The notes under the pieces: model-generated
Told to the model about the DNA's origin: nothing
The model's database searches: none
The model's input: the letters and a program-made list of their open reading frames with translations, nothing else
Source of the DNA: Botryllus schlosseri
Taxonomy: Eukaryota
DNA: 64,000 nucleotides
Assembly: GCA_051294905.1 (NCBI GenBank)
Contig: CM119371.1
Span: 23,562,001-23,626,000 of the forward strand
Direction of reading: 5' to 3'
Part shown: one piece after another, positions 11,540 to 58,019 of the stretch
Layout: each line of letters opens with the position of its first letter
How positions within the stretch are numbered: the first letter of the stretch is position 1
Made by a program: the position numbers and the translations under genes

Positions 11540-14242
11540 TGTAACACTACGACATCTCTCACTGCAAAGTGCAAGTACGATGAAAGTTGCGAAAAGTTAC
11601 CACAAAAGTGGTATCGGATATTATCTTGTTTCAACTGATACCAACGTTGGGAATACATTTTCACAAAACCTATTACTACGTTGAATGTCATCAGGATAAT
11701 GGGATATATTCCGTTATGATCATGAACTTGCTGGAAGAATCGGGGTAGCTAAAGGTTGTACCATTGGGAAGCCCCGCTGTATGTTGCTGATTGTAAATGT
11801 TTCGCACAATTACTGGGGTAGCATGAAAATCAGTCACGAAACAAATACGCAAGGAGGAATGTGACTATAGAAGACTGCAATGACAGCAACTAGGAAGATT
11901 CAGGAGATCTTATCTCATAATATGGTGACATTCAGCTGTGGATTCAAAGACTGCATCTCAAGGCAGGGAGCAAATGATGCACTGCGAATGATATTGGGCG
12001 CCTTTAATTTTGTGAACTACAGACACTGCTCAACGAAAATGCCTTGCTAGATAACTAGGTTACCCTCCAGTCCCCAATTGCAGTGCAGATGACTGTGTTT
12101 TATGCACTTGGCAAGCATTTTTGCATGTTACCCGTCATATTACAACTTTACAAGGTGTCATCTGTCTGTGTTTTGGTTTGTAATCTATAGTGTCTTCTGG
12201 TAAGTTTATCGCAAGATATCGGAGGAAAAACTTACGACACTCCGGAAAACTCCGGAAAAATAGCTGTAGTAATCTCCGAGTCCACTCCGAGTATCACAAA
12301 ATTGGCAAACCTCCGCTCCGAATAGACTCCGACTCCGCTCCGATGCTCATCACTAATATACATTAAACATTCAACATTACCAGCATGCTGATGTTCTTAA
12401 CAAACGAACTGAAAAACGATTCCAAATACCGTTGATTTCCATCTGATGATGTTATTGATTTTTGTTTGCGGTAATTTATCCTCATGCTACGTCTAAAGAA
12501 ATGGCGCGGTTAATATTAAACCGGCTGCTATCTATGGCTAGTGATTATGTATCGCATATTGACAAAGCGTAATCTTATTGGTGAGTTCGCTCTCTTGGTT
12601 GAATGTATGCCGTGCGAGGTGCACGTGCTGTGTATACTGGTCATGTATATGGTAGCTTGAATAATAAACTTACACGAACACTTGTTACACGACCCCACGA
12701 GAGGTGAATAGATCAAATTCCGCAAATATACCCTACATTACACCTTTGACGCTCAAAGTAGGGTCCGATATTCAAAATGGATGGCTAAGAATACACATCA
12801 ACGCGATTGTGTAAGGTGTGTAACATTTGCCCGAGTTGCATGCGGCTATATTAATAATACACGGTCTTAAGCAAGTAATATGTACATTTCCTAGACCGTG
12901 GTGTAAGCCTACTTCAGCACTACGGTACTGGGTACTTCTATCTTACAAGGTCGTTATATCTCAAATTATATGAAGAGAAGATTAGTCAAAAAAGTTGGCG
13001 AACGTCTGATCAATTGTATTCGAGATCTTGCGCCTACATTAATATTATGCTGGTTAACGGGAGATCGTAAGATGTCCAGTGAAGAAATTGTTGGAAATGT
13101 ACTGTGCTGTCCAATTGTACATCATAAAGTCCGGATTGACAGGACCCGTTTACGCTGACCCACTGCGATAATGTCCATAATGTAATCTGATGATGATAAT
13201 TCTGAAGAAAAGATGTATACTTGGGTATTTGACTCGATAATATTTAATTACCCACTCCCTCTCAATCGCCGTTAGTGACGTTGAAATCAATATTTGGAAG
13301 TGTTAACCATTGAGTCGATTGTTATTTGAAGTATACGCTTGATTCAATCGCCGTAACTATTCTTTCGATAGTAAGTGTGTAAATACTCTGGTATTTGTAT
13401 TTCGTGAAAGGCTTAAAGTCTAGTGCAGTTTTAAACTAACATGTCCTCGTAATAGATGCTAATGGTGAATCTCTCTTCAGGCAATCAATTTACGGAGAAT
13501 TACACGTATAGAAGTTTAGACGGAGGATACGTACTAAAGATATGTGATATAGATAAAAGCATACTAGATCTAGGTAAAGCGATTCTGTATATAGGATTGT
13601 AGAGGTGCGAACAGATGATGGAATTCACTATCGTAAAAATTCCGGAAAACTATTGTGCAGTCCTTCTACTTTCGAGATAAACCCTCTTGTTAATCAGCAT
13701 TGAGTTTTTCAAATTTTTATAAGTCAGGGGCTTCCAAAGGAGGGGTCACGATCCCAATGGAGTCGTTGTCTAGTCTCGGGGTCCCGGAGAAGAATATTAA
13801 CTCCCAATGGCTATTACAAGAACGCCAATTACGCGGATGCTAACGGCGTCTAATTTCTGAATATTTTAAATCATTTTTCAAAAAAAGAAGAAAGCACGAC
13901 CCCTGAGGAATGCGCACCGGTATAAACACGGTATCGGATCACTGAAGTCACCACCTATTATAACTTAAGGGTATATCGGGGGCATAATAAAAATCACTAA
14001 GATATTAATTTTTTCATCCGGACAAACTACAAGTGACCAGTAGTGCTACGTGTTAACAATTGTATAATACATACACACACGCTCGGCGCGGTCGTATAAC
14101 GTAGAGCGATAACTGTGTTTCGCGTGACACAGAGTACCATTTTAATTTACATCTATATACTTGATTTAGCTGTATATTATCTTTTGCTCTTATTATGTCT
14201 TATTCTGTCTATATTCACTATGTATTTCATAGACTTCTAGAC

Positions 14243-15045
14243 CAGTGTTTCGCAACGTTTTTGTCTTCGCGGGCCCCCTTCCGGCCCTCACGGACCCCTG
14301 CGGACCAAAAAATCTTTTGTTCCAATTTAGCCCAATTATCGTGAAACAGTGCAACAGTCACCTTTTTCCTACAAATAATTCCTGTAGGCTAGTTATAAAC
14401 GGCAATAAAATGACTTTTTTGATAATAAAATCATACTATTTATGTAGAAATTGGGTGGACTTAGATTATTTCAAAGCGCATTTCTGCATTTTTTTATTAC
14501 GTGATCGTGTATTCAAATTCCGCGCCTTCGATTTGATACGAATGAGTACCGAAAATCCATTTCCGTGAAGATAGGTGGTGGCGAATGTAGTAATTAGGGG
14601 CAATGCCTCCAATGACTCCAATGCGCATGATCGAAACGGTGCCAAAATAGGGCAAGAGATTTCTTAATGAACATACAACGTCAAGCCTAGTCATTTCTAT
14701 CTAGTAGCTCAGCTTGAAGTTATTCTGGAATAGGGCTTATGTAAATCAAATGAGAAAATGGGATTTTGAAAACAGTTCGAATCAACCCCAACAAACATCT
14801 ATAAACAGCAATATATTTGTGTCAGAAAGCTATAGTAAATTAACATGAGTTTGCACAGTCATTTCATCCGAGACGGCGATTCTGTTTATGTGAGTCATCA
14901 AGTTTTAGCTGTAATGAAGCACAAACTGCCTCGTGATTCTCCTAACATAAATATATATATAAAGTAGGTTATCAACTGTTTTGCAAATTTGAAGGTTTCG
15001 CGGACCCACTGGAAATGATTCACGCACCCCGGTTGTACACCACTT
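14243..15045. mobile_element. Non-autonomous hAT element
   Basis: Starts CAGTGTTTCGCAAC, ends GTTGTACACCACTT; TSD TTCTAGAC at 14235-14242 and 15046-15053. Confidence 0.75.
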
Positions 15046-16709
15046 TTCTAGACGAACGCCTAGGTTATTTACTGCAATGTAGGATTATACTATCTCGCAG
15101 TAGACTACCCCATCGAAGCAGACGACACAATTTTCTGTAGACCTGCGTTCCGAAAATCAAGGACTGGGGTCAACATTAAATATATACTGGTAATCATGGA
15201 TACTCGCGCTCCAGTTTCTTCCACATGATAGACTCGCGGGGTTCCAATTTAAATCATTTGCGTCGTTTGACGTAAATGTACACCAACCGAGTAAAAGATT
15301 ATTTCGCTACCATGTCCTTAGCTGATAGTCGTTAGATCACCATTTATTTGTCCTGTGTTGAAATTATGAATGTTTGGGTTGATTGATGATAATGAACATC
15401 AGCAATGATAATATCAGTTAGTTCGTCCGGGAACTGTTTCTATGTAAACGGCGAAAGTGTCGAAGTCAGATTTTCATTAGCCTGTTTACATAACGCTTTT
15501 GATATCTGCGTTACACTCCCAAATTTTACTAACGCATACATGGGCGAGAGATTATAGTCATTCGAGATTCGAATTGATTTCGAAAGTTCTTTGAGCAAAT
15601 AGCTAATAATGGAATTGAATGGATATACCCTTCAAACAGTCAAAGCCGATTCACCGTGCGTGCATAAACTTAATTACTCACTGAAGCCTAGGATAGGCGT
15701 AGCACAACGATTTCTCGGTGCCGTTACTGTGAAGCATTGAATGAATTGTTTTCATAGATCTGTCAACAGCAACACATAAATATGTGGGTCTCATTTGGTC
15801 TGCCATGCCATTTCTACGGTTAGGCAAAATGTTCGATTCCGATTGTAGTATAAAGCGTTGAATCGAGTGGAGTTTTCGTGTCTCACCCATTACGACATCA
15901 TTGACATTGGTGATATTTGACAAAGTAAAAGTTTTTCCTTATAGTCGACTACAATTAAGATATGTTCAGTTCGGCCTAATCAGGAATAACTTTGTATAAT
16001 TCTTCCAGCCCAATCGATTTGTAGTTTTGTTTAGAACGCCACTTAGGTAATCGAGTCAGTCCGAACATTGTTGGCGTATTTGTAAAATGTCTTTTCATGC
16101 ATCTCGGTTCATGATGTTCGTTTCTGGTGGGGGGTGAAGTTAATGAACTGTACATAATTGACTGTCATTTGACCTTTCAGCAGCGCTAAATTATGATGAA
16201 CATGGGTTCGTCTTTTCATTCATATTTGCAGTTGTTACAGATCATTCAAAGGACATGGCAGGTCGGATAATACCTGCATGATTATATAAATATATCTGAA
16301 AACATCCCACCTATCTCCATGATTTCATCATTTGTTACACGACACACACATCACAGTACATGTGATTTAATGTTAAGAATTCAAATGATAATAATTATCA
16401 TCAACTAGTCACACAAATAGAAGACAGTGTGGAAACGACTTGTTTAGTATTCTTCCAAGAAGGCACCAGCATTCGCCCAGAATATGCAAATGATAGTCGT
16501 GTTCACTCACTGAGAATAAGATGACTCAAAAAAGGATCAACAGGAGGCGACGAAATTGTTGTGGCATGTGACCGCCGGCGAAGTCAAATGTCAGATAAGG
16601 TCCCGTGATCTCGAACACTGGCTTATTGGGGGATAAGTTGTTATGCAGAATCCGACAAATGATAACAGATACAGCAACCGCAAAAGCTCCAGAATTCCTA
16701 TACTCAAGT

Positions 16710-16860
16710 GTAGTAGGTGTATCTAGGCTCCTCTTCTCCATCTCATCCGTGTATACGGTATCTCATAAAAGCCTATAGAATTTCGCCGTGCTACAAGTCG
16801 GCAGCTACGGAATAAAAATGCTGAAAGTTGGCCTCGTGTACATGACAAATTCCACAGTAC
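16710..16860 (+). mobile_element. SINE body fragment
   Basis: CTACAAGTCGGCAGCTACGGAATAAAAA core shared with the 8993 and 23035 copies. Confidence 0.6.
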
Positions 16861-17079
16861 TAGAAAAAATCTATAAATACTCTGGACGCACCAGACTTGC
16901 CGAAGCAGCCAGGCGCAAAAGACGCGTCGCGCTTCTTATTGAGAATATAGTAGAAGAAACACAAGTCAATAACCAGCGACCATACATACCAAAACGACTG
17001 CTTACTACTGCAGAATACTGCATGTAAGTACTTTACCAGTGATGCCGTCTGGTATGATCTTCACATCCTGCCTCTAGTG

Positions 17080-17909
17080 CAGGGCGAGCGACATACGGCC
17101 CGTGGGCCGGATCCGGCCCGCAGACAGTTTTCCGTCTTACATGATAATGTGGCCCGCGGCCCCAGTCTTCCAGGATTCCCTACTACTTGTTTAAATGCAT
17201 CGGATTTTAGTCACCATATTTTATTATACACATGTATGCGCAGCGAGCGAGGGTGGAGCTAACGCGTAAGTTCGTCGAAGCGAGAAGATTTGCATTATCG
17301 GCATTTACGATGTACTTAACCCAAATGTCATTTGTGGTCATCATGGTGTTTGTCGACTACAATGGTCAGGTCATTTACATCACGCCGACATTTCTTATTT
17401 TTGATTCCGTAACCGTCGACTTGTAACACGGCCCACTTCTAACCTTTTGTAAGACACCGCTTATGCCAGTGGTCGCCAACTCAAAACGGGCCGCGGGCCG
17501 CATGAATTTAATATCGAGGTAAAATAGGCCCCACAGTTGAACAATCTCGCTATCTCGTCTTCAACTAAACTCTAATGAATTGATATTTGGTAAATTTGGG
17601 GTATCGGGCTTATCGAACGCATTGAAATCTTCATTATGGATTGCACAGTGTGTTGATTGATCAGAGAGAAGCAGACATGGTGGTGCCTGTATGGCAATGC
17701 TGTTCTCACATCCACATTGTCTTCGTCATTATTGGCGAGAAATGGCTTGAAAACTACATTGCTGTCGTTAAATTACATTCATTAAATACGAATTATTCCT
17801 TGTTTATGCGGATAAATGGGCTGATAATGTATCAATTCAGCAATCCGGCCCACCAAGTACTTAATTTTCCAATATCCAGCCTGCCGACTGGAGAAGTTGC
17901 CCGCCCCTG
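17080..17909. mobile_element. Non-autonomous hAT element
   Basis: TIR CAGGGCGAGCGAC / GTTGCCCGCCCCTG; TSD CTCTAGTG at 17072-17079 and 17910-17917. Confidence 0.85.
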
Positions 17910-18638
17910 CTCTAGTGTAACGTCAACTTCCAATATCACATATTTCTTCTTACAACTATTATACAGCCAGAAACAACTAAAAAGTGCTTTTATTCAGCAA
18001 CTATTTCATATATTCATATCCGCCAGCTATTAAATCCATAGAGGCACACTTTCTACTGAGCAGCTTTCTACTGATACAGGCACGGGACTAACTTTCCGTA
18101 CGGAAGCAAAAGAGCCATGAAGTTGACCCGACGATAACCATAGCGGCAGACTCCGCGAACAGTAAGTCGCTGTCTGAAAAGAAACTCAGTAAACTAAGCG
18201 AGAAACAGTACGATGGAATCCTGCGCGGCAACAATCGCGGCTGGGAAACATGCATGAGTGAATCCGCGTTTTGAGAAAATACGTAATGATGTTCAGGTAT
18301 CATTAGAAAGAAGCACTTTGACCAGCACATTTTACTGAGTGGACGATAACATTCAAAAGTAGATATTTAGTTAACACAAACCAGTATCGTCAACATACCC
18401 GATCGAGTTAGCAAGCTGATCTAATGTTATATGATTCGTTCAGAAATCATTAGCAAGGAAAGTCTCCGCTGTAAGATCGTGACTATTTGAAAATCACAAC
18501 TATCTGTCTATCTGTCGCCGTACAAATTTTACTTGTTTCAGCACAAATTTGCCAATACGACAGCTAACTATATATAATAGGATAATAGCTGATTTATTAA
18601 TCGGATATAACAATCCGAGAATATAGCAAACTGTTTCA

Positions 18639-18699
18639 ATGGCAGAAGGAGGTCACGACCCGACTGCTCGCGTCTCATCATCGAAGCCTAGCATCGCAA
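18639..18699 (+). CDS. NLR-like gene, predicted first coding exon (MAEGGHDPTARVSSSKPSIA)
   Basis: ATG at 18639, donor A|GTGAGT, phase 1; frame-compatible with the next exon. Confidence 0.65.
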
Positions 18700-19202
18700 G
18701 TGAGTGCTTATTTTCGCAATATGGTCGTGAATGGAAATATTAGTCGTTACCAAATGCTAACCAAATACTAACTTTTCAATGAATAGACCACATCTTTCCA
18801 ATATTTTAAATTGCTGGAAGGATGCCACTGTGACGATAATAGGCATAGTCCTGATCCTTTCCCGATGACTTAGCATCGCCGGGAGGCAATTCCGTTGCTT
18901 TATGTTCAGAAAATAACCCATATTCGTTATTTACCAGTTTCCATTACATATATTTAACCATCATGAAGCTCCTGAATTGAAAAGAACCATACGCATTCAC
19001 GAATACCCGCGTCGCTAGGAATTTCCTTATGCTTCGTAATACTTCGTATTTATAATTTTATAACATATTCCTGCTGTCGAGCCTACCGAGATTGTTTCCA
19101 AAAGATAATCACATCCTCGTACGCATGTATATCTGGAATTTAGTGGTACTTTTTTCATGAATTAGAGCATTTATTAAAATCAGATGATCCATTTTCATGC
19201 AG

Positions 19203-19292
19203 TTTTGGCGAAAGGAGATCACGTCACTCAACATTTTGAAAATGCTACGGTGAACGTTGTTGCAGGAGACCAGTACAACACGGTGATTAACG
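19203..19292 (+). CDS. NLR-like gene exon 2 (ILAKGDHVTQHFENATVNVVAGDQYNTVIN), RHIM/amyloid-like motif
   Basis: Acceptor CATGCAG, donor G|GTAAGC, 90 nt, phase 1-1, no stop codons. Confidence 0.7.
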
Positions 19293-20026
19293 GTAAGCAG
19301 AGGTGATCAGTAAAAATGTAGTTGTACTGTTTCGGAGTACGCAAGTAGGTTGAGCAAATAATTGAACTACTCACTCAACTTTACCAATTAGAGTACTTTC
19401 CAATCTTTAATTCTCCACTTCGACTTTAAGTAGATCTGAAAAGTCTAGGAAATGATCACTTATACTCGTAATTAAGGGCAAATTTTTACAACAATAATTG
19501 TACTTCCACTTGAACACTTAGACGGGCTTCTTTCATTTCAAGTTATACTGTACAAAGGTGCATTTAGCGCGATATTGACGAATCATTAAAGCAATACATT
19601 CGGCAGTCGAGTCAGAAAGACGACTTTATTTTAGTTAACACAACAAGAAATTATAGTACAGATCTTAGAATCAGCAGTTTTCTAGTCCGGCAATCTGTCA
19701 TTTATAATTTGTAATAAATGTCCTCCTTTCCGGATTCCAAAATATGGTCACCCTACCGAATTTATATAGCAAATATGACTTGGCAATGTTGTGACAAGAG
19801 CTGTACACAAATTTATCTGTACTGTTAACCATTCGTTCATCACATAAAAGACAATGCGAGTGAATCAAATTATACACGACACAGAAAACGCTAGAAAGGC
19901 GCCGGACCCTTATCAGGTATAGGCTCTAATTAGATACAGCGAGGGCGCTGATCTTTATTGCATACACACCTTACCAAATTTAGAGTTGGATCATGGATCT
20001 TTTTCAAATCGACACCGAGTCACGAT

Positions 20027-20224
20027 CAATGTTCACTCTAATTTTTGACGAGTCTGCGCACACTCACCAACTCACTGCGTAGGTAGACCCTTGGACAACA
20101 GTGCGTAACAACTAAAAAAAGGGTCATCGTTTCGGATTTTTTGTGCGCAACTTAGATTTTCTGTGCGCAGAAACCATATCAGCGCTGCGCATTTGCGCTC
20201 GTGCGCAGCTTAAAGGGAACATCG
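20027..20224 (-). mobile_element. MITE, CAATGTTC family copy
   Basis: Inverted homolog of 3440-3624; near-TSD GTCACGAT/GTCACGGC. Confidence 0.75.
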
Positions 20225-20927
20225 GTCACGGCCATAAAAAGATATGACCCATCACGGACCACAAACCAAAATGATTTCTGCGTTGATTCCTTACTATTGT
20301 AAACTAACCAATGCAGGCTACTACAAACATTATGATAACTGAAACAAAACCAACACGTAAACACCAGCTTATTTATTACAGAAATCCATATTACAAATTC
20401 AACTGGCAATCTAGAATATGGGTTGCAACTGAAACAGCTGGAACTGGAAGCACGTAAGTCACCATGCAACATATCAATGATTTATTCCACGATAGTTCAA
20501 TGTGTGCGATATATACTATTCGTAGTGAACGACGAGTTTCGTAATATCTCGGCTACAAGCGTAGTGACGTATAGCAACTTGCTCTCTCATAATACACGTT
20601 TCTTCGAACTATCCGCGGTTTTATGATGTCATCATCATACGTAGGAATTAGCTCTGGCGACTGCCTTGCTGTAGGTTATGGCGTTTGTCTTGCTGTATAT
20701 TGTGGGTTCGATTTTCGATATAACATATCGATTCAGCGCTACGCATCTATCATGTCTTATACTTTAGCTGACACTTTCTTCAGGTATTCTCATGGAAATG
20801 ACATTGTATAGTGTACGAGTTCATTTATTGCGTAAAAGAGCATAATATATCAATGACAGTCGCATGTACGATAATCTAATGGATATAACGACAGACACAA
20901 ATTAGTCGCACGTACGCCATACCTGAT

Positions 20928-21560
20928 TAATTTTGTAAAATGAATACTAATGTTATTAAACCGTCTAACACTTTACGATGAATTTTGAAAAGTATATAGA
21001 AAATTATTCTTTTCCGATGCACTATAGATTTCAATACTCTGGATTTTGTAGAGTAGGCAATATACTAATTTTACTACGCCGCATCGAATGTTATAGAGCA
21101 GAAAGAAACGACTTTCTACAATGTAATAAAGACTTTACACTATCGATTTTGTAGAACGAATGCTAATCTGATTAGACTATCGAACACTTTTACGCTGAAT
21201 TTTGGAAAGTAGATGGAAAAATACTCTTTTCCAATGTAACAAAGATTTTTGCATTATGGATTTTGTGCTGCATCTGTATATACTAATTTTACTAAACAGC
21301 CGAACACCTTTACATCGAAATTTATAGAGTAGAAGGAGACTACTTTTTTCAATGTATTACTGACTTTTACACTATGGATTTGTGAAATGAATACAAATCT
21401 TATTAAGCCGTCAAACACTTCACGGCGAATTTCGTAAAGTAGATAAAAAACACTCTATTCCGACGTAGGCTACTATAAAGTTCCACACTCTGCATTTTGT
21501 ACAATGTACACTAACTTAACTAAACCGCTCCGGCTTTTATCGAGTAGAAAGAAACCCCCT
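20928..21560. repeat. Diverged tandem repeat, ~105-118-bp units
   Basis: ATTTTGT..ACTAAT..AACACTTT..AGTAGA motif recurs at about 20930, 21042, 21145, 21259, 21377 and 21493. Confidence 0.8.
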
Positions 21561-23034
21561 TATATTTTGATGTCGTAAAAATACCACAAACTCCGGTAGC
21601 GTTCAGAAACGATGAAGAAATACTTGTTTTTGCGTTCACTCACAAAATACGGAAGTGTTTATGATATTGGACTGACTGGAAAATTGCCTGACGATATGGA
21701 ATATTTGATTCCGGGATATATTCCAATTAGAATTTCATAACCTGATAGCACTGGTCAACAAAAAGAAAAAGAGAAGAAATTTTGACAGAACACCTGAGAA
21801 ACGTTTCTGCGGTTTTCGAAGTTGCTATTTAGGAATATTATATTAATTTGCCTGATGGGCTCTAGAAAAGAAGACATTTATATCCCTATAACGCCTAAAA
21901 TCGCTGTATTCGCGGTGGCTTTAAAACGTTTCGGAAACACTGGGTTAGATGATTCAATCGGTGATTTCATTCTTACTATATTAGCAATTTCGGAATCAGT
22001 ACCGCAATATCACTCGATATAACGCGTTATTTTATATGTATGCGCTGTTTATGATGAATTGCGGTATCACAGATGGTGTTTTATTTGCATGTGCCTCACT
22101 CGTCCATGCGCCATATTTCTTTTATGGACAATGAACGTTAAAATTACGTAATGTTATTTTTATACATATATACACTTATATGAAGAGAAGGAATCACATA
22201 TGTGAAGGCCTGATACCTAATTAACTAATGGGGGAAATTAGATTTATATGCGAGAGGTGAAAAGGGATAATCTGCTAATATTCCGTATCCATGCCGGACT
22301 TGCCGGTGTAGTAATAAGTTGGCCGATATACCTAATATAAAATCAACGTCTAGTTGCTGTCAATTTTTGACAACTAATGAATTTCAATAAGGTATACGGA
22401 TATATAACTCGGAAACCGAAAACAATTTATGTTGACTTCATCTTCTTAACGAACTCCGGCATTGATTTTCGATGTCGCTATTTCTAAATAAAATTAAAAA
22501 AAAAACTATTTTACTGAGTTTCAGGCAGTATTGCGTCCACTTTGTGATGTTATATTTTATGATTGAGAATTCGCACAAAACTTTAAATTGACTAATGGTG
22601 GCCAAACTTTTTGGGTTAGTGGCTGACTGGAAAAATTATAAAACGCTTTTAGCACACTTGCAAAAAAGTTGTTTTTCAAAGAAAAAACTTAATGTGGTAA
22701 AGAAATGGTTTTGCGACGTTTCGTATAACAGTGGTCTGTTCTTTTGCAGAAAGATTGTTGATTCCTTGCTTACGAATAGACTAATAACCCATCTAAAGTT
22801 GTGAACATCAAATCCTTAGAACTCTTTCAATGCAAGTGGAATTCCAGACAGTGCGTTCAGGTTTTCGTTTTTTTTACGAGATTCTTCACAAGGAGTGTGA
22901 AACGAATTTTCGACACATAGTACCCGATGATTACGGGACGATTACACACTCATGGGCACTGTCATGATTGGTTCGATTTCCATGGTTATATGTGCTTATT
23001 TATCAGTTACGAAGCAGTGTCGCATATAGTTATT

Positions 23035-23185
23035 TTCCCTCATCCGCGTGAGCGGTGTCTTACTAAAACCCTAGAATGGGACCGTGTTATAAGTCAGCAG
23101 TGACGGAATAAAAATGAAGAATATCGGTGTGATGTAAATGACCATAGTAGTCTACCGACAACATGAATACCTCAAAACAAACAAA
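23035..23185 (+). mobile_element. SINE 3' portion
   Basis: Core GCGGTGTCTTAC...AAGTCAGCAGTGACGGAATAAAAA plus (AAAC)n tail. Confidence 0.6.
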
Positions 23186-23356
23186 CTATAGTTCTCCCAA
23201 AAATTCCAAAAAGATTCTCGGCACCCCTTACAATATGTGGTGACACGTCAATGTGCCTAACCGCACAGTTTGAGAATCAGTAAACTATACAATAAAATTT
23301 CACTTAACACATGACCGGTATCAGCCTACATATAAAGACAAGCACATTGATTACAG

Positions 23357-23431
23357 AGCTCACTGTGGTTAATCCATCGGGCAGTTCTGAGAGTAAAAAA
23401 AAACTGAATGCGCAGATAAGTTCAGGAGCTG
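23357..23431 (+). CDS. NLR-like gene exon 3 (ELTVVNPSGSSESKKKLNAQISSGA)
   Basis: Acceptor TTACAG, donor G|GTGAGT, 75 nt, phase 1-1, open frame. Confidence 0.65.
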
Positions 23432-25058
23432 GTGAGTTTCTATAAAACATCTTAATGGATTGTTTGACCTACATGATAGTAATGAAATATACTCTTACTT
23501 CAAGCTTATTCTAACTTATTATACTACTTCCTAGACCGGTTATATTTTAAGCTACTTCTACTTGATAGATTTAAGAATGCCTAATTATTTACATATTTGT
23601 GAATCTCAACTTTTACTTCTTCTTGAGTAGTAACTGCAAGCTTACGAACAACAATGACTATTTTGACCACTCTGGTTCATTCATAAATTTTATCCTTCGG
23701 TGACTTCCCACTTACTTCTAGCCACGGGAGGCGGATAGCTATTGGCTGGGCAGATCCAAGTAGCAGGGTAGATCCAAGTAGCTTTGAATCCCGATATGCC
23801 TTTGCCATACCGATTTTACCTGCCAATCTCAATCTGTAGTCGACAGTCCCTGTCGTCATCAAGTAAAACGTTCAAAAGTAACTCGACGCGATGTACCCGC
23901 AAACCAATTAGTCGACTCGGAATCCAGTTACCTCCTTGAATTCACTCACTCACGAAATTCGAGTACGTAGTATTTCGACTGTAGCAATGCATTTCAACCT
24001 GTGTGACGCTTCGCACTAGTGCGAATGAAGGAAATTGCATTGCGAATGACGGAGGTGGTGTGAATGAAAATCCGGATTGAGTGCGAATGAAAATCGTGAA
24101 TACTTTTAATTTTTCTGACGTGGAATAATTCACATAAACGTAATGCGAAATTCAAGGGCAGTGTAACTTTTGTGATTGCGACGCAATTGTAAGTTGTTTG
24201 ACTTACGACGCACCACTAATCGTAGGTCTCACAGAGTCACAAGCCGTAGTGCATTAATATTTCCGCCCTATAATTATTACGTAACCAAAAGCCTGGTTTG
24301 GAAGCTGTAGCTACACACACAATTGTGTAGTGACAGTCATACAGTACGTCAGCCCGTCTGAGCCTGCGACAGGCTGAAAAATGACGTCAAATTGACTTTC
24401 TGCTTTCTTTCGCTGAACAATCGTCGTATTTTTGTATTAACTGTTCAATTACCGCGAGACATGAGAATAGTAGTAAATACCACTATTACAGACTCACAAT
24501 CGCAAGTTACTGTAACGCAAATTTTTACCCTTCCACGGGTTAATAAAGTATGGACCGCAAGCGGTTGGCCTAAAAGTTTGGGCCGACACTCGACACGGTG
24601 CCAGTGTTATCTGTTAATATGTATATGTAATTTGTTGAACTGATTGCAAAATATCCTGCGATAGTATTTGCATATCCAAGGTCACTGTGTTGGGTACTGT
24701 AGCCAATAAGCGAGACACGCAGAAATAACACTTGATCATGGCAATCGCCCGACCTTTTCAGCTAGTTTGTGCGAATGAAATTTATTTCACAAGAAAAAAG
24801 GTTGAAAAGCACTGGACTATAGGATCAAGGGATGTCAATACCGTATCGACGAAATAACTACTAGGTTGCATGTTGTTTTTCTTCTGAGGCAATTTCGGAA
24901 TTAATCATATTGATGCATGCATTGCTAAAGTGCTGATACTATACCTGAACGACCAACTACCAAGCTACTAATAAGGTCATAGCTGTGTTGTGGATATAGC
25001 ACATAAATAAATATATCGAATCTGCATCATCATCTTATTTCCGACTATTTTTTTTTAG

Positions 25059-26197
25059 AAATGTCATTTCTAGCAAAGACTAGACTACATCTGCGAAACG
25101 AAGTTGGGGAAATCAAAATGCCAGCTCGTCCCACAACAATGGTGATAGATATGCAAAACTCTACAGACGCCAATCCGGAAAATGGAAGTCACGGTGCTAG
25201 CAAAACTATATTTGGTCGCGACGTTGAAGAAATCTCTTATGTCCAATTTCACGATCCCTTGAAGGACGAAGTTCCCAGACATGTTATGATTCTCGGAGAA
25301 GCGGGAGCGGGAAAATCGACCATTTCAGCAATGTATTGTTCGGCTGTGGCCGATGGAAATGTTGAGACGCTTCGTAGTGTAGAACTTGTTCATTACGTCC
25401 AGGCAGCCCACCTTCATAATAATAGTACCGCAAATGCCTTTGATCTCTTATTCACCGAACAAATGACTTGCGATCCTATGACTGAGCTGACTGAAAACGA
25501 GAGACGTGCTGGAGCAAAGTGGTTAAATCAGAATTCTGGCAAGCTATTATTGACAATTGACGGCCTTGATCAGTGCTTAGATAACTTTGCTGTGAATAGT
25601 CTACCGAAAACCGACCAACAAAACAATTCAAGAATCAGTAAAACAATTGCTAAGATCATGGGCGGTAACATATGGCGTGGTGCATACATATTGACTACGT
25701 CGCGGTGGAATATATACTGGAACTTTACTGCCGAACAGAAACCTAACAAAGTAATCGGCATGAGAGGACTTGACGACGGAAATCTAAGATTGGCGGCATC
25801 AGGACACTCTGTTGATGGTGATAGGATGATAGATCAACTCGTAGATACTTCGCCGAAATTATTGAATTTGTGTCGAAATCCCATGTTTCTTAAGTACATG
25901 ACGAATGTATTCCGAACCAATTCAGAAAACTTGCCTGATTGCATTTCTGGTCTCGTGTCAGCATTTTTTCGAAATTTTTTTCGCATGTCTTCTGAAAAGT
26001 ATGGTGATATCACGAGACTTGCGTACCATGGAATGTTGAAAAATTTATTCGTTTTCTCCCGATGTTACTTGGAAAACTTGGGAATCAATCCAAAAGACCT
26101 GAATGACTTCTTGTCTGCTGGAGCAAATCCGGAGAAAGATCAAGATATCGCCAATTCATTTGACGATATTTTTGCGTTCTCCCATCAAACGATGCAG
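25059..26197 (+). CDS. NLR-like gene, NACHT NTPase exon
   Basis: Poly-T AG acceptor at 25058; Walker A GEAGAGKS, Walker B LLLTIDGLD, sensor-1 ILTTSR, LCRNPMFL, LAYHGM, FSHQTMQ|GT. Confidence 0.92.
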
Positions 26198-26409
26198 GTC
26201 AGCAACGTTTATGTAACCAAAATTTCCCAATTCGATAATTGCAAAGCTACCCGTTCCAAACACTGTGCAAGTGGTAGCAAATAACCAAGGGTAGGCATTT
26301 CTAGAACATCGTTGTGTCGCAATCATGGAGATTGACGCAGCAAGTAGTACGGCTGACCACGAAATTGTTCTTAATGTTTGGTTAAATTAATATTAATCAC
26401 CCATCTGTG

Positions 26410-26583
26410 AATTTTCCCTTTAAGCTGCTGCGGACACGGTCTCTGCGCACAGAAGATCTAAGTTGCGCACGAAAAAATCCGAATTGATGACCTTTTTTTT
26501 AGTCGTTACGCACTGTTGTCTCAGGGTCTGCGCAGTGACTTGGTGAGTGTGCGCAGTCTCTTCAAAAATTAGAGGGAACATTG
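26410..26583 (+). mobile_element. MITE, CAATGTTC family copy
   Basis: Homologous to 3440-3624; ends AGAGGGAACATTG. Confidence 0.7.
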
Positions 26584-27315
26584 CCCTCTGTACACATGTT
26601 GACGTGTCTTCTGAAAGCAGTGGAAACCAACATCACTGTACATGTTCACAACAATTCAGTTTCAATGAGAAATTAGCATGGTTAAGTACAAGCAAGCATT
26701 GAATACCTGACATAATACTCTCTACTTTTAACTGGAAGCGATGGAAACTTGGGACCATTTAGTAAAACATAGTTGAAATATATTCGAAAATGATCTATTT
26801 TAAAAATTTACTTCTGACTACTGCACTATCGGTTGCAGACTTTGCTTATCAGTTTTTTGAAACAAGTTATAATTTCGAAATTTAATAATAATGAATTTTT
26901 GTACACGTGTATATTTATTGACCTGTAGCCAAAGAATGCTTGCTGACGACGTGTATTTTATAAAATGTTTACTAACTATATGATTTAGAAAGATATGGCA
27001 CGCCATCTTCTTTACATTTTTATAACCAAGCGATTGATAAAGACAGACCCGAAACAGTACTTGTTTAGCACCCTTTGTGCTCTCATAGGACGAAAAAACT
27101 TTTGGGGCCCTATAACCCTCATACCGCCCTTTTACGACGGACATTTCACAAATACTTCGAAATCACGCTTTAATGTGATGGGGATTGATGCTCATTATTT
27201 CGATAGTCGCGATTTTCAAGTCCAGGATTGAATTTTCTTTATATCAATAGTCTATGTACTAATCCTCGTCTCTAAGCCCACATCATCAGATTTATCGTTA
27301 GAGCTGGTGACAGCT

Positions 27316-27655
27316 TGTTTGTTTTGTTTGTATTCACATGTACGCAGTAGCGCTTATCGCCTATACGGTCATTTGCGCCACGACATAATTTTCAGTAATT
27401 TCAATCCATCACCCGTTGTAATGTTTCGGACAATTCTCGCTCTCTCTCATCATCGGTCACTCTCGTTTTTCCTGCCCCCATAGCTTGAACTTTGCTGCCG
27501 ACTTTTGGCTTTTGGCTTTGACTTGTGGCTCGGCTCACCTTAACTCTGGGCTTTCGGAACACTGCTACGGCAGTGGGTCAGCGATGTGGCGTCCAGAGAA
27601 ACATATGAACTTGGTAGAGCCGAGACTCGTACCAACGCACACTGCGCCAGCACTC
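27316..27655 (-). mobile_element. SINE copy (antisense, intronic)
   Basis: Reverse complement contains GTCGTGGCGCAAATGACCGTATAGGCGATAAGCGCTACTG and an (AAAC)n tail, matching the 3' end of the 5269-5639 SINE. Confidence 0.7.
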
Positions 27656-29360
27656 GCATCCCTAGCTACAGGAGGTGGTGGCTTCGAAAATAAAAGGGAT
27701 ATCAAATTATCCTCTGGTGGGCCTGTTATTTATGACTTTGTTTTATGTTTTTCTTTCCGCGACCTCCTATCTCCTATATAGTCAAAATATATTGGAATCG
27801 TCCAAACGTACCATATTAAACCAAAAGTAAAGCCGCATACGCTAATAGAAATGGGCATTGATGCACAGCACGCGTCATATTCCTCGGCAGGTTCCAGGGT
27901 CACATTTGTACTATGAGCTCAGATTGCAATCATGTGATTATTCCGCGGTGGTTTTATCTGGTAATAATGTGTCATGGCAAGGTCATGGAAGGTGCTGAAA
28001 TACCTATTTTGCTAAAGAATGCGTATTTTTTCTTAGGGATGGGAGGGTGCCTATATAAAAATCAGGATAAATGGCGAAGGGGCTACTCTACATGTTTTCG
28101 AGGTCGCGATTTTCCCATGGTGCAGGGAGTCGGTATCCAATGGTCCGAGACCCATATATATGGCTCTTTCGGGTATAACATATGGCTCTTTGGCTATTTT
28201 TTAATCTTGTACTGAATTGATGAATATTGCAGCAACTTGTTGGTGAATATTTATCACGGTCGGTAATAATTTTTCTCGTGGTAGTATAACCATTTCTTTG
28301 AATGGTAGAGGTAATGCTGTATCCATGGTTAGGGACTCGTACCCTCTTTTTCAAAATCCTCAAATTTTCGTTGCAGTCGCGCCGGCGACAAATATCCGAT
28401 GAACCCGACTGGAAACCTAAGATTGCACGATACGCTGATTCACCAAAGATAATAGCAAACATAATGACGCCTGTATGTCATGCGAATCTTAAATACACAT
28501 TGTATTGTATATCTTCGGTGAGAAATAGAGTACCATAGAAGTCACAATAACAAACTCAATTACAAACATGGCCGTAGCTGTTAAAATGCGATAAAATGTA
28601 GGCGTGTAGCGCAACGTTGTATGTTACCGCCGAATACATTGAAAATTTAGAATTGGATTAATATTTAGATTTTCGGAATCAGTGCGACAGTTACATTCGA
28701 TTAATATCAGTTATTCTAATTTAGTTACGATTAATTCCACTATCAATAGTGAGGCTTGGCCTGTCTGCGCCATATACCTCTCGTCTCTTGTGTGTCACTT
28801 GCCACCACTGACCCCACGTCCCTTAACTATCATACCTTGCAGTGGGTATATATTACTGTGGTGACCATGTTTGACTCCACCTGCGCATGTGATCATGCAT
28901 TCTCTCATTTAAAACGAGTATCACAACGAACATATGTTCTCGTATAAGTGATGAAAGTCTCAAATTTTGTATGAAGCCTTTAACCTCATGATTATCAACC
29001 AAGACAACAAAAGTATCAGTAATACCAAAACAAGTATTTCCTGCCAAAAAATGTTTAAATAGTTGAATCACACTTTTGCTGTTATCTACGACTGTTGAAA
29101 ATGTTCATTTTCTTAAGCTCCGAATATCACATTACTCTCAATCTAATACGGTTAAAAAGATGTCACGTGCAAAAGATTTATTTAAATCAAGTATCGAATG
29201 TTCAAATACGGCAACCAGCATTATTAGAACGAGTGCCCGACCCCTGCATAGTGAAATATTGTTGATTGGAAATTTTCACTTTTCCCTAATGTTTCTAAAT
29301 CGGACGTATTGGCCAACAATACAGTTTCATGCTACGCGTATTTCTTGATCATGTGTCCAG

Positions 29361-29523
29361 GAATTTTGCTGCGCACTGCATGTCGCGAGTCTCGACCGAT
29401 CGAATATGAAGAGATTCATTTCGAATGATCTAAACGAGAATGGATTGGAGTTGACTAGACAATTTTTTTACGGATTGATTCTCAATGATAAAGTCACTAA
29501 TCCAATGAGGAAGTTCCTGACGG
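29361..29523 (+). CDS. NLR-like gene exon, winged-helix/HD2 (EFCCALHV...RQFFYGLI)
   Basis: CCAG acceptor, G|GTAAGT donor; splicing yields FSHQTMQEFCCAL, the NLR FxHxxxQEF motif. Confidence 0.88.
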
Positions 29524-30166
29524 GTAAGTGCATGTGTCCGCGTTATCCGAATGAACTTATAATCTTGCACATATTTCACCGTGTTTTCGACATGGTAGTA
29601 GGCTAGTGACGATAGAATGCACCTCTCACCTCCCCATGTTTCCAGAAAGGGGGACAGTAAGATGCAATACTGTTTCGGTACGAAGATAAGACCGCAACTA
29701 TTATTATGACCGACATTTTGCTCCCACGAATTCCAGATTAACCGAATCCAAGCATAATATTATAGAGTGGTGACACCGCCAATACAAAATTAGCCGTGCC
29801 TAACCTATCTTAACTATAGGATAAGAGCAGAAATTATATTAGGATAATTTCGTATACATAGACCGCCTCCTATGGGATAGTCGGTCGAAGTTGAGTATTT
29901 GCTTAGCTTTGTTATATGCATTTAACATATTAGTTTGAAAGGGGAGAATCCGATCACATAATGGCAAATAGTCACGTTTCACAGTAGCCTACTTGTTTGT
30001 ATGATTTATTAGATGGTAAAGTATTATAAATCATCAGCCCTGTAATTAATGTTAACGTCGTAAGATATGTTTGCGTGTAGAATTCGAACAGCGTTGCGTT
30101 TTAAAATGCATTATATGGTTTCCCTTCATCAATAATAATACTTTCATGGCCTTTTATGACTGGCAG

Positions 30167-30486
30167 GTCTCAAAACCCCAATCAGGGATTGTCGCGAGAT
30201 GTTGTTCGAAGAACTTTTTAACATGGTAACTGATGGTACAATACGGGATATTTCAACTGTTCGTCTTCTGTACGAGTGCGGAGACGACACCATTAAAAAA
30301 ATGAAGCAGCACGTTCAACGAGTTACAATCAATTCGGGAGACTTGCTTTAAACTGACCAAATTCTACTAATAACAATGATACAACGACTATCTCCCCTTA
30401 GAACGACGTTCGTAGAGCAAATCGATCTTGATCCATCGATGATATTGTATGTGAAAGATTGTCTCCGATCTACTGATATTTTTGAG
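30167..30486 (+). CDS. NLR-like gene exon (HD2/linker) with in-frame TAA at 30349-30351
   Basis: GGCAG acceptor, phase 1; reads GLKTPIRDCREMLFEELF...VRLLYECG...SGDLL*TDQILL...DIFE|GTATGT. Confidence 0.75.
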
Positions 30487-30596
30487 GTATGTGAAATTCT
30501 ATCGAATCAAGTTTTCGTAGTTAAATTTATATTTTATTCTCCAAAATTGTTTCTTTATGATATATTGCATTTAATAAGCTTATATTGTGTAACAAG

Positions 30597-30746
30597 GCTG
30601 GTTACGAGATTATGGATTCCGTGAAACAAATGCATTTCGATGATGTGATAACAATCCTAAACCAGTCGAAATTATGGTACGTCCGCCTTCGATGTGATGA
30701 TGATGTCAAACTTTTATTTCTTTCCGATTGGATCAAAAGATCACAG
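30597..30746 (+). CDS. NLR-like gene exon (AGYEIMDS...WIKRSQ)
   Basis: AAG acceptor, CAG|GTATTC donor, 150 nt, phase 0-0, open frame. Confidence 0.6.
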
Positions 30747-31400
30747 GTATTCCATTTTTCTATTTTCGTTGTCAGATATAGATATGGCCTTCGGCAAAGG
30801 ACTATTCTATGAATGTCCAAATGCTGATATTCAATATATGGTTCGGCAGTTGTGAATAGAATGAGAATGTTTCCGAATATGGGTAACTCACGAATACCCG
30901 TATCGTTGAAATTGTTAATTGATTTCACAAAACCAAACACTTAACAACAATGTACGACCTAAGCATGCGGAATATTGGTATCGCTAGGTTCAGGACTTCT
31001 ACAAGTATTTTAGCCAGTGACCCAAGCATATCCACTAATCCAGTAACTGATGACAAGCTTGTAGTTTGGTATCTTTCATCTAATATCGGATATCTATACC
31101 CTCTTCGTCCTTTCATCCTTTTCACCTATCATCCGCGCTCGTTCGAACTTTCCAGGGAAACCAAATGACAGAAAATCTTCCAATGGTATGAAATGAACTT
31201 TTGTGCATATTGTCGTACTAACTTTTCTGCAGGTGTCACGCATCGATTATAGTAGGCCACTAAAGAAAGTTAACCTAGACGGCCAGAAAATAAAAAGTAT
31301 AAAAATATCGTTTTCATACGATTGCGATCCACCCTTTGAGAACTAATATGACATAATCGTAGAATCTGGATGATTAAAATATTATGTTCTTCTAATTTAG

Positions 31401-31574
31401 ATTCACCTGGATAACCTTGACTTGTTAAGAATAACGAAAAATGACACTTTGAAATGTTTGTTTAAATTTCTGTCGATACACTCATTAGCAAATCTGCGTT
31501 TGAACATAAATTCTGGCATAATTGGATCACAATTCAAAGATGTTGTTACGTCTCGTGGACCGATAACAAGGAAG
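31401..31574 (+). CDS. NLR-like gene LRR-like exon (IHLDNLDLLRI...LANLRLN...ITRK)
   Basis: TTTAG acceptor, AAG|GTGAGA donor, 174 nt, phase 0-0, open frame. Confidence 0.7.
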
Positions 31575-31664
31575 GTGAGAATTTTCATTATTCAATGTTA
31601 GTACTAAATTGCACCATGTTGTCTGTTTTGTGTGTAAGTCTGTCTGTGTACAAGTACTCTAGAG

Positions 31665-41788: not shown

Positions 41789-43380
41789 GGGGAAGCGAGT
41801 GGCGCAGTTGGTTACGCACTGCAGTCACGACACCAATGGAAGTGGGTTCGAATCCCGGTTCTGACCAACTTTCTACGTGTTGGAGGTTTCTCTGGGCTCC
41901 TCATCGCCGATATCACTACTACGGCAGTGCATTGATAAGCCTAGATCGAAAGCCGGCAGCTGAGACAACGCTGGGGGTAGGTATGAGGGGGGTAGTGGGG
42001 CTCTGCTACTCGGCTTTGTTCCCCAGGACGATATCTGGCGATAACTACTCCTGTGCTATATGAAGGAATTACAATTCTTTGTATATCCCTGCCACTTGAA
42101 ATCGTGAATTCGATGACCGGCCATATAGTATGAGCGTCTGTGAGTAGGGGCTCTGGCGTTAGGGGCATACTCTGTTTTGGTCGGCAGTCTGAATTAGATT
42201 GACCCTGACACGGTCATATTTAGGGCAATGGAGGAGGAAATGCTCCAAGGTTTCTTTGATCCCGCATGCATCACAAAGGCCACTTTGATGACATTAAATT
42301 CTGTGTAGATGACCGTTCAGCCCACAGTGACCAGTCTGCAGTATAATTAGGATTAAAGATTCCCTGCGTGACAAATCGATCATTGGGTTTATGTCCCTGA
42401 TATCTCCATTAATTTTTCTATGTTGCGAGTCGTCGTCATGGGTATTCATGTGATTGATCCACTTTTTCCGACATAATCGGCAATATGGGATTTAATTTTC
42501 TTCATAGTATTTTTTGCTGAAGGTTTTGATCTCGCGCAAGTGGCATCAGTGCTGCTCTTCGTGCGATTTTGTCGGCTTTTTCGTTGCCGCGGATACCTTT
42601 ATGGGCAGGGACCCAGACCAAAACAACTTCGATCCTTAGTGCATTTAATTCAGATCCTAGGAGGAGGATATCGGCGATGAGTTCATTGTCCGGAGAGCAA
42701 TTTCGAATCGCCACTAGACTGCTCTGGCTGTTCGAAAAAATAGCCACACGACTTTCCGGCGTACCATTGCGTTTAACCCATTCTAAACTATTTCGAATGG
42801 CGTTCAATTCTGTCGAGAAGACGGATAAGTGACTGTCGAGGGTATAGCTGTAACAGACGTCTCTGTTCTCAACGAAGAAACATGACCCACAGCCCGATGC
42901 GTTTTCCGAGCCATCAGTATAAATTCTGGTGCTCCCCGCATATTGCTCGTGTATGTATTCTTCGGTGATTTGTTTTGCGAAAGTGGGATGAACATCTCTC
43001 GATAATAACGTAGCTAGGCGTAAGTCTACGCCGATCTTGGGCTGTGGCCATGGTGGCAACGGAGACTGTTCGTAATTCTGGACGATTGGATCTTCAAACA
43101 TATCCGGTCCTGCTAACATGTTGAAGGTTCGCAATGAGTGGTTGCCGGGAAAAATTTCATGGCATGAGCCAGTTATTAAGTATTTGTGGGGCGATTCACA
43201 CAACGTTGGGGGCGCGTGCTATAGTGAGAGTGACTGAAGATTGACTGGGAGAAGAGAATGAAAGCAGTGCCCAAGATTACGAAGGGCAAATACACTATGG
43301 ACATTATCATATTTCGTGTAGTGGCAGCACACGGCTTGAAAAAAACTATAAACGCCACTGTGTAGTACCAATAATTACAA
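41789..43380 (+). mobile_element. tRNA-derived SINE interrupted by a LINE
   Basis: Head GGGGAAGCGAGTGGCGCAGTTGG...GGTTCGAATCCC as at 5269; 3' part resumes at about 43200; TSD TAACACACC(C)AGGAT at about 41775 and 43381. Confidence 0.8.
41978..43199 (-). mobile_element. 5'-truncated I/Nimb-clade LINE (RNase H plus CCHC zinc knuckle)
   Basis: IYTDGS...VFSTELNAI...WVPAHKGIRGNEKAD (RNase H); downstream LQTGHCGLN..CDACGIKETLEHFLLHCPKY; TSD ACAACG(C/T)TGGGGG at 41965-41977 and 43200-43212. Confidence 0.88.
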
Positions 43381-57950: not shown

Positions 57951-58019
57951 GTTGGCGGCAATCAGGAAATTAGGGTGTCAGTGCCGACACGTTTTTGGCG
58001 TGTGTTCACTCAGTGCCGA

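Follow-up and report, generated by a model that had tools for sequence, protein, structure and literature searches.

A short N-terminal motif exon shared by many NACHT receptors of Botryllus schlosseri and its possible amyloid-like signalling role

What stands at the N-terminus of an animal NOD-like receptor (NLR) that has no recognizable death-fold domain? The question is raised by a gene in a 64,000-nucleotide stretch of the Botryllus schlosseri genome (assembly GCA_051294905.1, 495.5 Mb in 219 contigs; contig CM119371.1, here C1, positions 23,562,001-23,626,000), which is the whole stretch that we analysed and is called the window below. A reading of this DNA made without database searches, the sequence-only reading, had joined three small exons to a NACHT exon, likened the short peptide encoded upstream to the RHIM (RIP homotypic interaction motif) of RIPK3, and suggested that the receptor signals by amyloid templating. 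Here we report that the second of these exons encodes one copy of a conserved motif that is the usual N-terminus of the NLRs of this genome. The motif is real and appears to be new, and an amyloid-like signalling role for it is plausible by analogy with other receptors of this kind; as a recognizable RHIM it was rejected.

The gene in the window and its motif exon

The gene lies on the plus strand and comprises the following features (window coordinates):

18639..18699, plus strand: inferred exon 1, 61 nt, with an ATG start, 20 further codons and 1 nt, followed by the donor GTGAGT
19203..19292, plus strand: exon 2, the motif exon, 90 nt between cag and gtaag, phase 1-1; codons 19205-19291 encode the 29-residue motif
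19253..19273, plus strand: the core heptapeptide NVVAGDQ of the motif (genome site C1:23581253-23581273)
23357..23431, plus strand: putative and weakly supported exon 3, 75 nt between cag and gtgagt, a phase 1-1 linker with a second V-V-N element
25059..26197, plus strand: exon 4, preceded by tttttttag and ending in CAG before gtcagc; a pre-NACHT extension of about 72 residues, the NACHT domain and the start of a winged helix
29349..29603, plus strand: probable downstream exon with approximate boundaries, encoding a helical domain after NACHT (weak NLRC4_HD2 match, E 0.016)

The lengths of exons 1 to 3 (61, 90 and 75 nt) place all three introns in phase 1; the computed join of these exons is open and enters the frame of the open reading frame (ORF) 25007-26284 that encodes NACHT, and an in-frame TAG at 18624-18626 lies 12 nt 5' of the initial ATG. 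The exons, canonical splice sites, intron phases and NACHT join described in the sequence-only reading are thus confirmed as features of this DNA. Exon 4 is an unbroken frame of 379 codons, 91-95% identical to three paralogues, and its residues 73-217 match the Pfam NACHT model (E 2.6e-11; 44.1 bits, the cut-off being 26.7), as in animal NACHT-type NLRs. The same exon has a weak NOD2_WH match that falls under the cut-off (E 0.0077, 16.7 bits), and no LRR was found in the gene among ORFs of at least 45 residues. A tblastx comparison of its 3' half with paralogues returned mainly recent non-coding duplication and repeats; the sole exon to emerge was 29349-29603, the ORF of which is kept in the paralogue loci L035-L037 and L032.

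Searches for a death-fold domain ahead of NACHT returned nothing in or around the gene. The peptides of exons 1 to 3 have no death-fold, TIR or other Pfam match at E<=10; the 21 plus-strand ORFs of at least 45 residues between exons 2 and 4 (part of 108 ORFs scanned from 19.3 to 46 kb) hold no death-fold, TIR or other relevant family, and five ORFs within 2 kb upstream of the gene match no Pfam family at all. The sequence-only reading had claimed such an absence, and this part of its claim stands; the figure of about 75 residues that it gave for the whole N-terminal region does not, since about 72 residues ahead of the P-loop lie within exon 4 itself, so that about 148 residues precede the NACHT domain. 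These 148 residues match no known domain.

The exons upstream of NACHT differ in how they compare with paralogues. A profile made from the paralogues gives exon 2 a score of 75 bits, and blastn aligns this exon alone, at 80-86% nucleotide identity, with paralogues in which the flanking sequence fails to align. In the window gene the acceptor AG usual in the family, 11 nt before a Leu codon, is gone and another AG has arisen 9 nt farther on (window 19192-19204), so that the motif exon of this gene is three codons shorter than in most paralogues. Counterparts of exon 1 were found in two of 20 paralogue loci (L031, with 80% amino acid identity, and L034), and those of exon 3 in three of the 20 (L035, L036 and L037), where acceptor, open frame and phase-1 donor are kept and conservation is no higher than in the surrounding intron. 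A direct splice of exon 2 to exon 4 is also in frame. Four raw-read RNA runs labelled with the same species, of each of which about 6-13% was read, gave neither exon depth nor joints over window 13000-32999, and the reads placed there all fitted only partly, pointing to repeats; this blank is no evidence either way.

A motif family attached to two NACHT clades

With the 29-residue peptide as query, 82 matches spread over many chromosomes were scored in the genome, of which 25 have E<1e-3, and a degenerate NVVAGDQ pattern has 39 exact genome sites against none for the reversed control. A copy from a second group of receptors (clade B, below) returned 150 matches, and the merged searches give 153 distinct motif sites. 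Their consensus is x-A-x-L-A-E-G-D-x-V-x-Q-x-F-x-N-x-T-V-N-V-V-A-G-D-Q-(Y/T)-x-x-x-I, in which 12 columns are conserved in at least 90% of aligned copies. The motif is about 30 residues long, and about 45 in clade B, where the conserved stretch runs on past G-D-Q as I-x-x-N-x-V-V-Y-x-I...A-E-x-E...Q-G-E-C-N; in clade A, to which the window gene belongs, the V-V-N element is located on exon 3 instead.

We used 30 aligned copies for the analyses of selection (435 pairs), structure and column counts. Over the whole motif the proportions of synonymous and nonsynonymous differences (pS and pN) are 0.65 and 0.18, a pN/pS of 0.28; the core TVNVVAGDQ, with pS 0.56 and pN 0.096, occurs in 22 nucleotide versions. 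Identity is 72% within the exon vs 27-30%, about random, in its flanks. The motif is protein-coding and under purifying selection, and the refuting condition named in the sequence-only reading, a lack of conservation among paralogues, clearly does not hold.

The copies are also alike as exons. In at least 26 of the 30 copies an acceptor AG precedes the Leu codon by 11 nt, and in 21 a phase-1 GTRAG donor follows; a typical copy is thus an exon of about 90-99 nt, symmetric in phase 1-1. Two paralogue loci each carry two splice-competent motif exons in the same phase, the second exons, with intact splice sites, being:

L038 5674-5763: second tandem motif exon, 4.2 kb from the first
L043 1028-1084: second tandem motif exon, 0.45 kb from the first

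The second copy in L043 is a distinct variant, ...A-E-E-G-N-T-E-Q-T-I-S-N-A-T-I-N-V-I-G-G-N-Q..., which is also present in P0011, one of the ORFs recovered by the protein searches described below.

To what are these exons attached? The genome holds at least 200 NACHT exons: a Pfam NACHT search gave 224 candidates (94 scored), the NACHT exon of the window gene as query 199 (108 scored) and a clade-B exon 219 (88 scored), and the Walker-B pattern FDGLDQ has 143 sites vs 4 for its control. The first 100 of these 143 sites, which were listed, are complete for contigs C3 and C8, the other 43 lying on higher-numbered contigs. From such partial lists we compiled by hand a catalogue of 177 distinct NACHT exons, which is for that reason incomplete. 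A same-strand NACHT exon lies less than 30 kb downstream of 104 of the 153 motif sites, at a median distance of 8.3 kb; conversely, at least 93 of the 177 catalogued NACHT exons have the motif upstream, at least 11 of them in two or more copies. In the fetched paralogue loci a NACHT exon occurs within 8.5 kb of the motif in 14 of 20. No NB-ARC domain was found in the genome at E<=0.001, and by their domain matches the carriers are animal-type NLRs.

These NACHT exons fall into two clades. Clade A has the P-loop GEAGAGKS/T on an exon of about 380 residues, and clade B the P-loop ASAGSGKT or GQPGSGKT on an exon of about 490-540 residues; clade-B exons match NOD2_WH over its cut-off (32.7 and 28.1 bits), and a downstream ORF of a clade-B paralogue has a weak LRR_6 match (E 0.0014). 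Clade-B copies share with the window gene 19-28% identity in NACHT and 52-64% in the motif, so the motif is better conserved than the ATPase domain to which it is attached. That one motif exon is common to two deeply diverged NACHT clades is what exon shuffling predicts, and these comparisons support it; the exon had been called shuffle-ready from its phases, which its symmetry across the family bears out. In four further paralogues, with 132 ORFs scanned, no Pfam domain lies between motif and NACHT, and a short, conserved, apparently non-globular motif does stand where a death-fold domain usually sits, as had been proposed for the window gene.

Death-domain models match 116 exons in the genome, and those compared by eye coincide with no motif or NACHT loci. 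Many of the 116 are near-identical inverted pairs about 10 kb apart, spread over many chromosomes, for example C4:20656892(+)/20667428(-), C5:25440527(-)/25450416(+) and C12:17220158(-)/17243607(+). Rather than ordinary single genes, such pairs suggest a repeat unit scattered through the genome, which could be a mobile element or a gene pair duplicated in inverted orientation.

How far does the motif reach beyond this genome? A motif profile searched against 1.84 billion representative proteins gave 15 matches at the threshold of E<=1e-3, with no annotated protein of any species and no fish protein among them. Eleven of the 15 are short unnamed ORFs of 40-160 residues, which read through the acceptor site and are thus genomic ORFs; in two, P0014 and P0016, the motif begins at Met1. 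For another ORF with the motif, P0009, the closest sequence in this assembly is no more than 56-60% identical, so at least one other organism carries the motif. The remaining four are long repetitive proteins that owe their score to summed partial repeats, one labelled as from a bacterial metagenome-assembled genome (MAG) and the others with bacterial surface-repeat domains. In the former, P0013 (MEY4589450.1, MAG Pseudomonadota), a repeat of about 98 residues reads, for example at residues 1229-1256, A-E-G-D-R-T-I-T-H-S-I-N-S-P-T-V-S-I-N-V-V-A-G-D-D-I-I-N; its repeats score a few bits each, and are therefore probably convergent beta-strand sequence.

Among 5.8 billion proteins the NACHT exon has one named relative, a Styela clava Death+NACHT protein of 30% identity that is without the motif, and two further near-class unnamed matches. 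In the ESM Atlas the clusters nearest to this exon are NACHT/NOD2_WH proteins, mostly chordate, and the motif peptide finds nothing over chance (0.80). A full-text literature search for 'NVVAGDQ' returned 0 papers, and nothing describing the motif was found in the published literature on RHIM, NACHT, NLRs and amyloid motifs that was searched. The motif thus appears to be new, in that it is absent from Pfam, PDB sequences, annotated proteins and the literature searched.

What the motif may do

Conservation within the motif first alternates in an i/i+2 pattern (V10, Q12, F14, N16), then becomes contiguous through T-V-N-V-V-A-G-D-Q with its G-D turn, and goes on into a further beta-prone stretch. 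Its composition also differs from that of the NACHT exons: N+Q make up 21.4% (8.8% in NACHT), V+I 20.6% (13.3%), T 9.7% (5.6%), P 0.2% (3.5%) and K+R 2.7% (12.0%). AlphaFold2 gave no confident globular fold either for the 32-residue exon (predicted local distance difference test, pLDDT, 73.8; predicted template modelling score, pTM, 0.22; no DSSP elements) or for a 52-residue clade-B segment (pLDDT 49). A prediction of a four-copy complex of the 32-residue exon scored 0.21 against a mark of 0.32, which is no answer, and is not used as evidence. Taken together, 25-30 or so contiguous conserved residues, their i/i+2 pattern, their composition and the lack of a globular fold in these models point to a beta-strand assembly element rather than to a folded domain or an ordinary linear motif.

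Columns 16-18 of the motif (window 19241-19249) read N-x-T, with N in 28 and T in 22 of the 30 copies, and formally constitute an N-glycosylation sequon. No hydrophobic stretch resembling a signal peptide is encoded by exon 1, and this N-x-T therefore probably reflects no more than beta-strand composition.

We propose that exon 2 is one copy of a lineage-specific N-terminal signalling motif, common to a large NLR repertoire, which would take the place of the death-fold effector domain. Oligomerization through NACHT would cluster the N-termini, and these could then assemble through beta-strands, the likeliest form being an amyloid-like cross-beta stack that recruits or templates a common downstream factor. 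An N-terminal position, tandem copies and conservation across NACHT clades would, by analogy, be hallmarks of NLR-associated amyloid signalling motifs, and together they suggest one shared downstream reader. We put the probability that the motif is an amyloid-like (cross-beta) homotypic signalling motif, working like the fungal and bacterial motifs and RHIM and a member of none of them by sequence, at about 40%. A fuller version of the proposal, in which the motif founds a new animal amyloid signalling family, sequence-unrelated to RHIM, that serves more than 100 NLRs as their common output module and templates one or a few motif-bearing effectors, we regard as rather unlikely.

The candidate effectors under this fuller version would be sought among the 49 of the 153 motif sites that have no catalogued NACHT. 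Those that stand together are:

C8:3,863,738 / 3,917,728 / 3,973,816 / 4,008,646, plus strand: array of four regularly spaced motif sites without a catalogued NACHT
C3:21,620,750 / 21,663,592 / 21,703,802 / 21,788,095, plus strand: array of four regularly spaced motif sites without a catalogued NACHT
C3:20.09-20.18 Mb: two motif sites without a catalogued NACHT
C12:3.10-3.14 Mb: two motif sites without a catalogued NACHT

Some of the 49 sites must be gaps in the catalogue, given the 43 FDGLDQ sites on higher-numbered contigs that it does not cover. None of the four partial catalogues places a NACHT exon at the two arrays of four, and FDGLDQ has no exact match there. As the list of FDGLDQ sites covers C3 and C8 completely, the arrays either encode NLRs whose Walker B differs or belong to another gene family. 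These arrays (C8:3.86-4.01 Mb and C3:21.62-21.79 Mb) are candidates, as is a motif-only copy at C1:23,710,595 in the nearest paralogue locus, L031 (C1:23709095-23719094), about 129 kb downstream of the window gene. L031 is a recent duplicate of exons 1 and 2, with 88% nucleotide identity over window 18000-20151. The catalogue lists no NACHT exon between L031 and the next gene, nor does one occur within 8.5 kb, and its 24 ORFs have no Pfam match; the locus may have been truncated or may be a gene with the motif alone.

Several observations weigh against an amyloid relay. Among them are the copies without a catalogued NACHT, just under a third of the family. No non-NLR carrier of the motif or partner protein was found in the window or around seven unpaired copies: the sole copy in the 64-kb window is exon 2 itself, no Pfam domain occurs in 8.5 kb downstream of each of three unpaired copies, and none within 1.5 kb around four others. 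No known amyloid-motif model matches the motif; HET-s and the other amyloid-motif families of Pfam fail on the window peptide and on all 30 copies alike. Conserved acidic residues (E6, D8 and D25; D+E 10.9% vs K+R 2.7%) would form like-charge ladders in an in-register parallel stack, which makes a simple homotypic amyloid less likely and favours a complementary partner or another binding mode. Finally, no RNA read covers the gene, so that the transcript chain, including the presence of exon 2 in the mRNA, is inferred, for exon 2 from paralogues.

The best-surviving alternative is that the motif is a docking peptide without templating, a beta-strand to which a single globular adaptor or enzyme, shared by all these NLRs, would bind, for instance through beta-augmentation. 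Conservation of the motif independently of NACHT clade fits such a single trans-acting reader, the conserved net negative charge disfavours in-register self-stacking, and both the missing second class of motif-carrying proteins and the silence of the amyloid-motif models are what it would lead one to expect. Typical linear docking motifs are shorter and less hydrophobic than this one, which has about 25 contiguous beta-prone residues with very few prolines and few basic residues, and tandem duplication in at least 11 genes fits the stacking of repeats better. We judge a docking peptide a serious competitor, if an improbable one, and weaker than the amyloid-like reading.

A second alternative makes the motif act in cis, as an autoinhibitory or regulatory peptide, as a pro-peptide removed by a protease (for instance by a cut after the Asp of A-G-D-Q), or as part of a small fold completed by the roughly 70-130 residues ahead of the P-loop. 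Both clades do have a sizeable unannotated pre-NACHT extension, Pfam NACHT beginning at residue 73 of exon 4, and Asp25 is kept in 26 of the 30 copies. A cis-acting element should nevertheless diverge along with its own NACHT or LRR, whereas the motif is two to three times better conserved than NACHT between clades; Asn replaces Asp25 in three of the 30 copies, conservation reaches far past a cleavage site there, and the motif exon is separable and duplicated. Such a role is accordingly distinctly improbable.

Could the motif still be a true divergent RHIM, homologous to those of RIPK1, RIPK3, ZBP1 and TRIF and of the RHIM-NACHT proteins of amphioxus? Its position is that of the RHIM in the amphioxus NACHT proteins (PMC4262963, in the portion available), it has a hydrophobic-x-hydrophobic-G element followed by D or N and Q/N-rich flanks, and RHIM relatives can be very divergent, according to the accessible parts of PMC4262963 and bioRxiv 10.1101/2020.01.06.895854. 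Yet the searches run against this kinship throughout. The scan with RHIM and amyloid-motif hidden Markov models (HMMs) that the sequence-only reading had proposed was run with the Pfam models and matched none of the 30 copies; Pfam RHIM (PF12721) has no match at E<=10 on the window peptide or on any of the 30 copies, and over the whole genome gave three marginal matches (E 2.6-9.4), none at a motif site, with the reservation that the filters of HMMER may drop very weak matches. With the motif profile, neither a RIPK nor a HET-s chain comes up among 177,635 PDB sequences at E<=10, nor does an annotated RHIM protein among the 1.84 billion representatives.

The residues that define a RHIM are likewise missing. 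The RHIM is defined by a core tetrad (V/I)-Q-(V/I/L/C)-G, as given in the accessible text of PMC9444067, and the sole G-terminated tetrad of the motif is V-V-A-G: the position of the defining Q is V in 27 and I in 3 of the 30 copies and Q in none, and the third position is A in 26. Nor is the G-phi-Q-phi-G pattern present that, in the available part of Dyrka et al. (2020, bioRxiv 10.1101/2020.01.06.895854), RHIM, PP and BASS3 share, the consensus T-V-N-V-V-A-G-D-Q having neither a G before the core nor a central Q. The alignment offered in the sequence-only reading to the RIPK3 string as quoted there needs a one-residue shift. The motif as a recognizable RHIM was rejected on the grounds of no HMM match, no tetrad in 30 of 30 copies and no PDB match, and homology to RHIM beyond recognition is in our estimate very unlikely.

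Least probable of all, with only a slim chance, is that the exon chain goes unused in the window gene, exon 2 being a relic or the gene a pseudogene and the transcript starting elsewhere. For it speak the lack of coverage in the four RNA runs (a blank that is no evidence), the scarcity of paralogue counterparts of exons 1 and 3, and the neighbouring L031, where no NACHT exon accompanies exons 1 and 2 within 8.5 kb. Against it, exon 2 is undamaged, keeps its two splice sites and reaches a profile score of 75 bits, the NACHT exon is unbroken over 379 codons at 91-95% identity to paralogues, and the motif-to-NACHT arrangement recurs 104 times.

Elsewhere in the window the gene is surrounded by remnants of mobile elements:

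6540-7964, minus strand: mobile-element remnant
10112-10753, minus strand: mobile-element remnant
42502-43215, minus strand: mobile-element remnant
57077-57970, plus strand: mobile-element remnant

Their domain matches include an rve integrase core (E 9.5e-10) and an RNase H (E 1.1e-10); among them are an ORF of 298 residues with 64 relatives that carry reverse-transcriptase domains and a minus-strand open frame of 474 residues without a Pfam match.

Comparison with known systems

Amyloid motifs of fungal and bacterial NLRs, namely HRAM (of NWD2/HET-S), sigma, PP and BASS1-10, are N-terminal on NOD-type receptors. The Botryllus motif resembles them in its length of about 20-30 residues, its place at the extreme N-terminus where an effector domain would be, its richness in N, Q, G and V, its pseudo-repeats and its variation between families, and its occurrence upstream of a same-strand NACHT exon at 104 of 153 sites gives it the same relation to a NOD-type receptor. 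It differs in that the fungal and bacterial motifs are found again at the C-terminal end of an effector whose gene lies next to that of the receptor, whereas here no partner was found in the window or around seven unpaired copies; in that none of their Pfam models matches it; and in that it occupies an exon of its own in the intron-containing genome of an animal. The RHIM of the mammalian proteins RIPK1, RIPK3, ZBP1 and TRIF is a beta-forming homotypic motif of about 18-22 residues in unstructured flanks. Shared with it are the shortness, a hydrophobic-x-hydrophobic-G core and N/Q-rich flanks; unlike it, the Botryllus motif has no RHIM tetrad, matches no RHIM HMM and is carried by NLRs rather than by kinases or adaptors.

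Animal RHIM amyloids act in kinase and adaptor pathways, and to our knowledge amyloid signalling coupled to NLRs has been shown experimentally in fungi and bacteria only, the sole link between RHIM and an NLR in animals that we know of being a bioinformatic report on amphioxus. If the Botryllus motif is indeed the mark of an amyloid motif family, an animal would have a prion-like relay from NLR to effector of the kind known so far from fungi and filamentous bacteria, and a concrete peptide of about 30 residues, together with more than 90 receptor genes, is at hand for testing such a relay in an animal. If it is a plain docking peptide, it would still mark the output handle that an expanded family of invertebrate NLRs without death-fold domains has in common, and offer a route to the downstream adaptor.

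The idea that an NLR of an animal carries a RHIM where a death-fold domain is expected is not new either, having been put forward in the amphioxus report. As set out in the accessible part of Kajava et al. (2014, PMC4262963), amphioxus has a large set of RHIM proteins, including RHIM-NACHT-repeat proteins such as BF82280, in which the RHIM sits where CARD-like domains usually do, and tunicates appeared to be without RHIMs. To judge from that part of the report, the Botryllus receptors share with these proteins an animal NACHT architecture, a short non-globular N-terminal motif replacing CARD-like six-helix domains, and membership of an expanded innate-immune repertoire. The amphioxus proteins were, on the same evidence, found by a RHIM profile, whereas the Botryllus motif matches no RHIM model and is without the Q of the tetrad, a difference that does not come from a direct alignment of the sequences.

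In exon structure the closest parallel is the zebrafish NLR-B30.2 (NLR-C) family, in which, according to the available portion of Howe et al. (2016, PMC4852459), N-terminal peptide repeats of about 30 residues, of unknown function, are encoded by one exon each and shuffled between NACHT groups. As described there, these single-exon peptides lie upstream of a large Fisna-NACHT exon and are repeated in some of hundreds of genes. The Botryllus motif is likewise a peptide of about 30 residues on its own exon, attached to different NACHT groups, a likeness of architecture only, with no homology detected; as far as that account goes, it is unlike the zebrafish peptides in being of one dominant type and usually single-copy, and neither B30.2 nor Fisna was detected with it. 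By sequence and arrangement, then, the Botryllus motif combines an architecture like that of zebrafish with a proposed logic like that of amphioxus, and its sequence belongs to neither.

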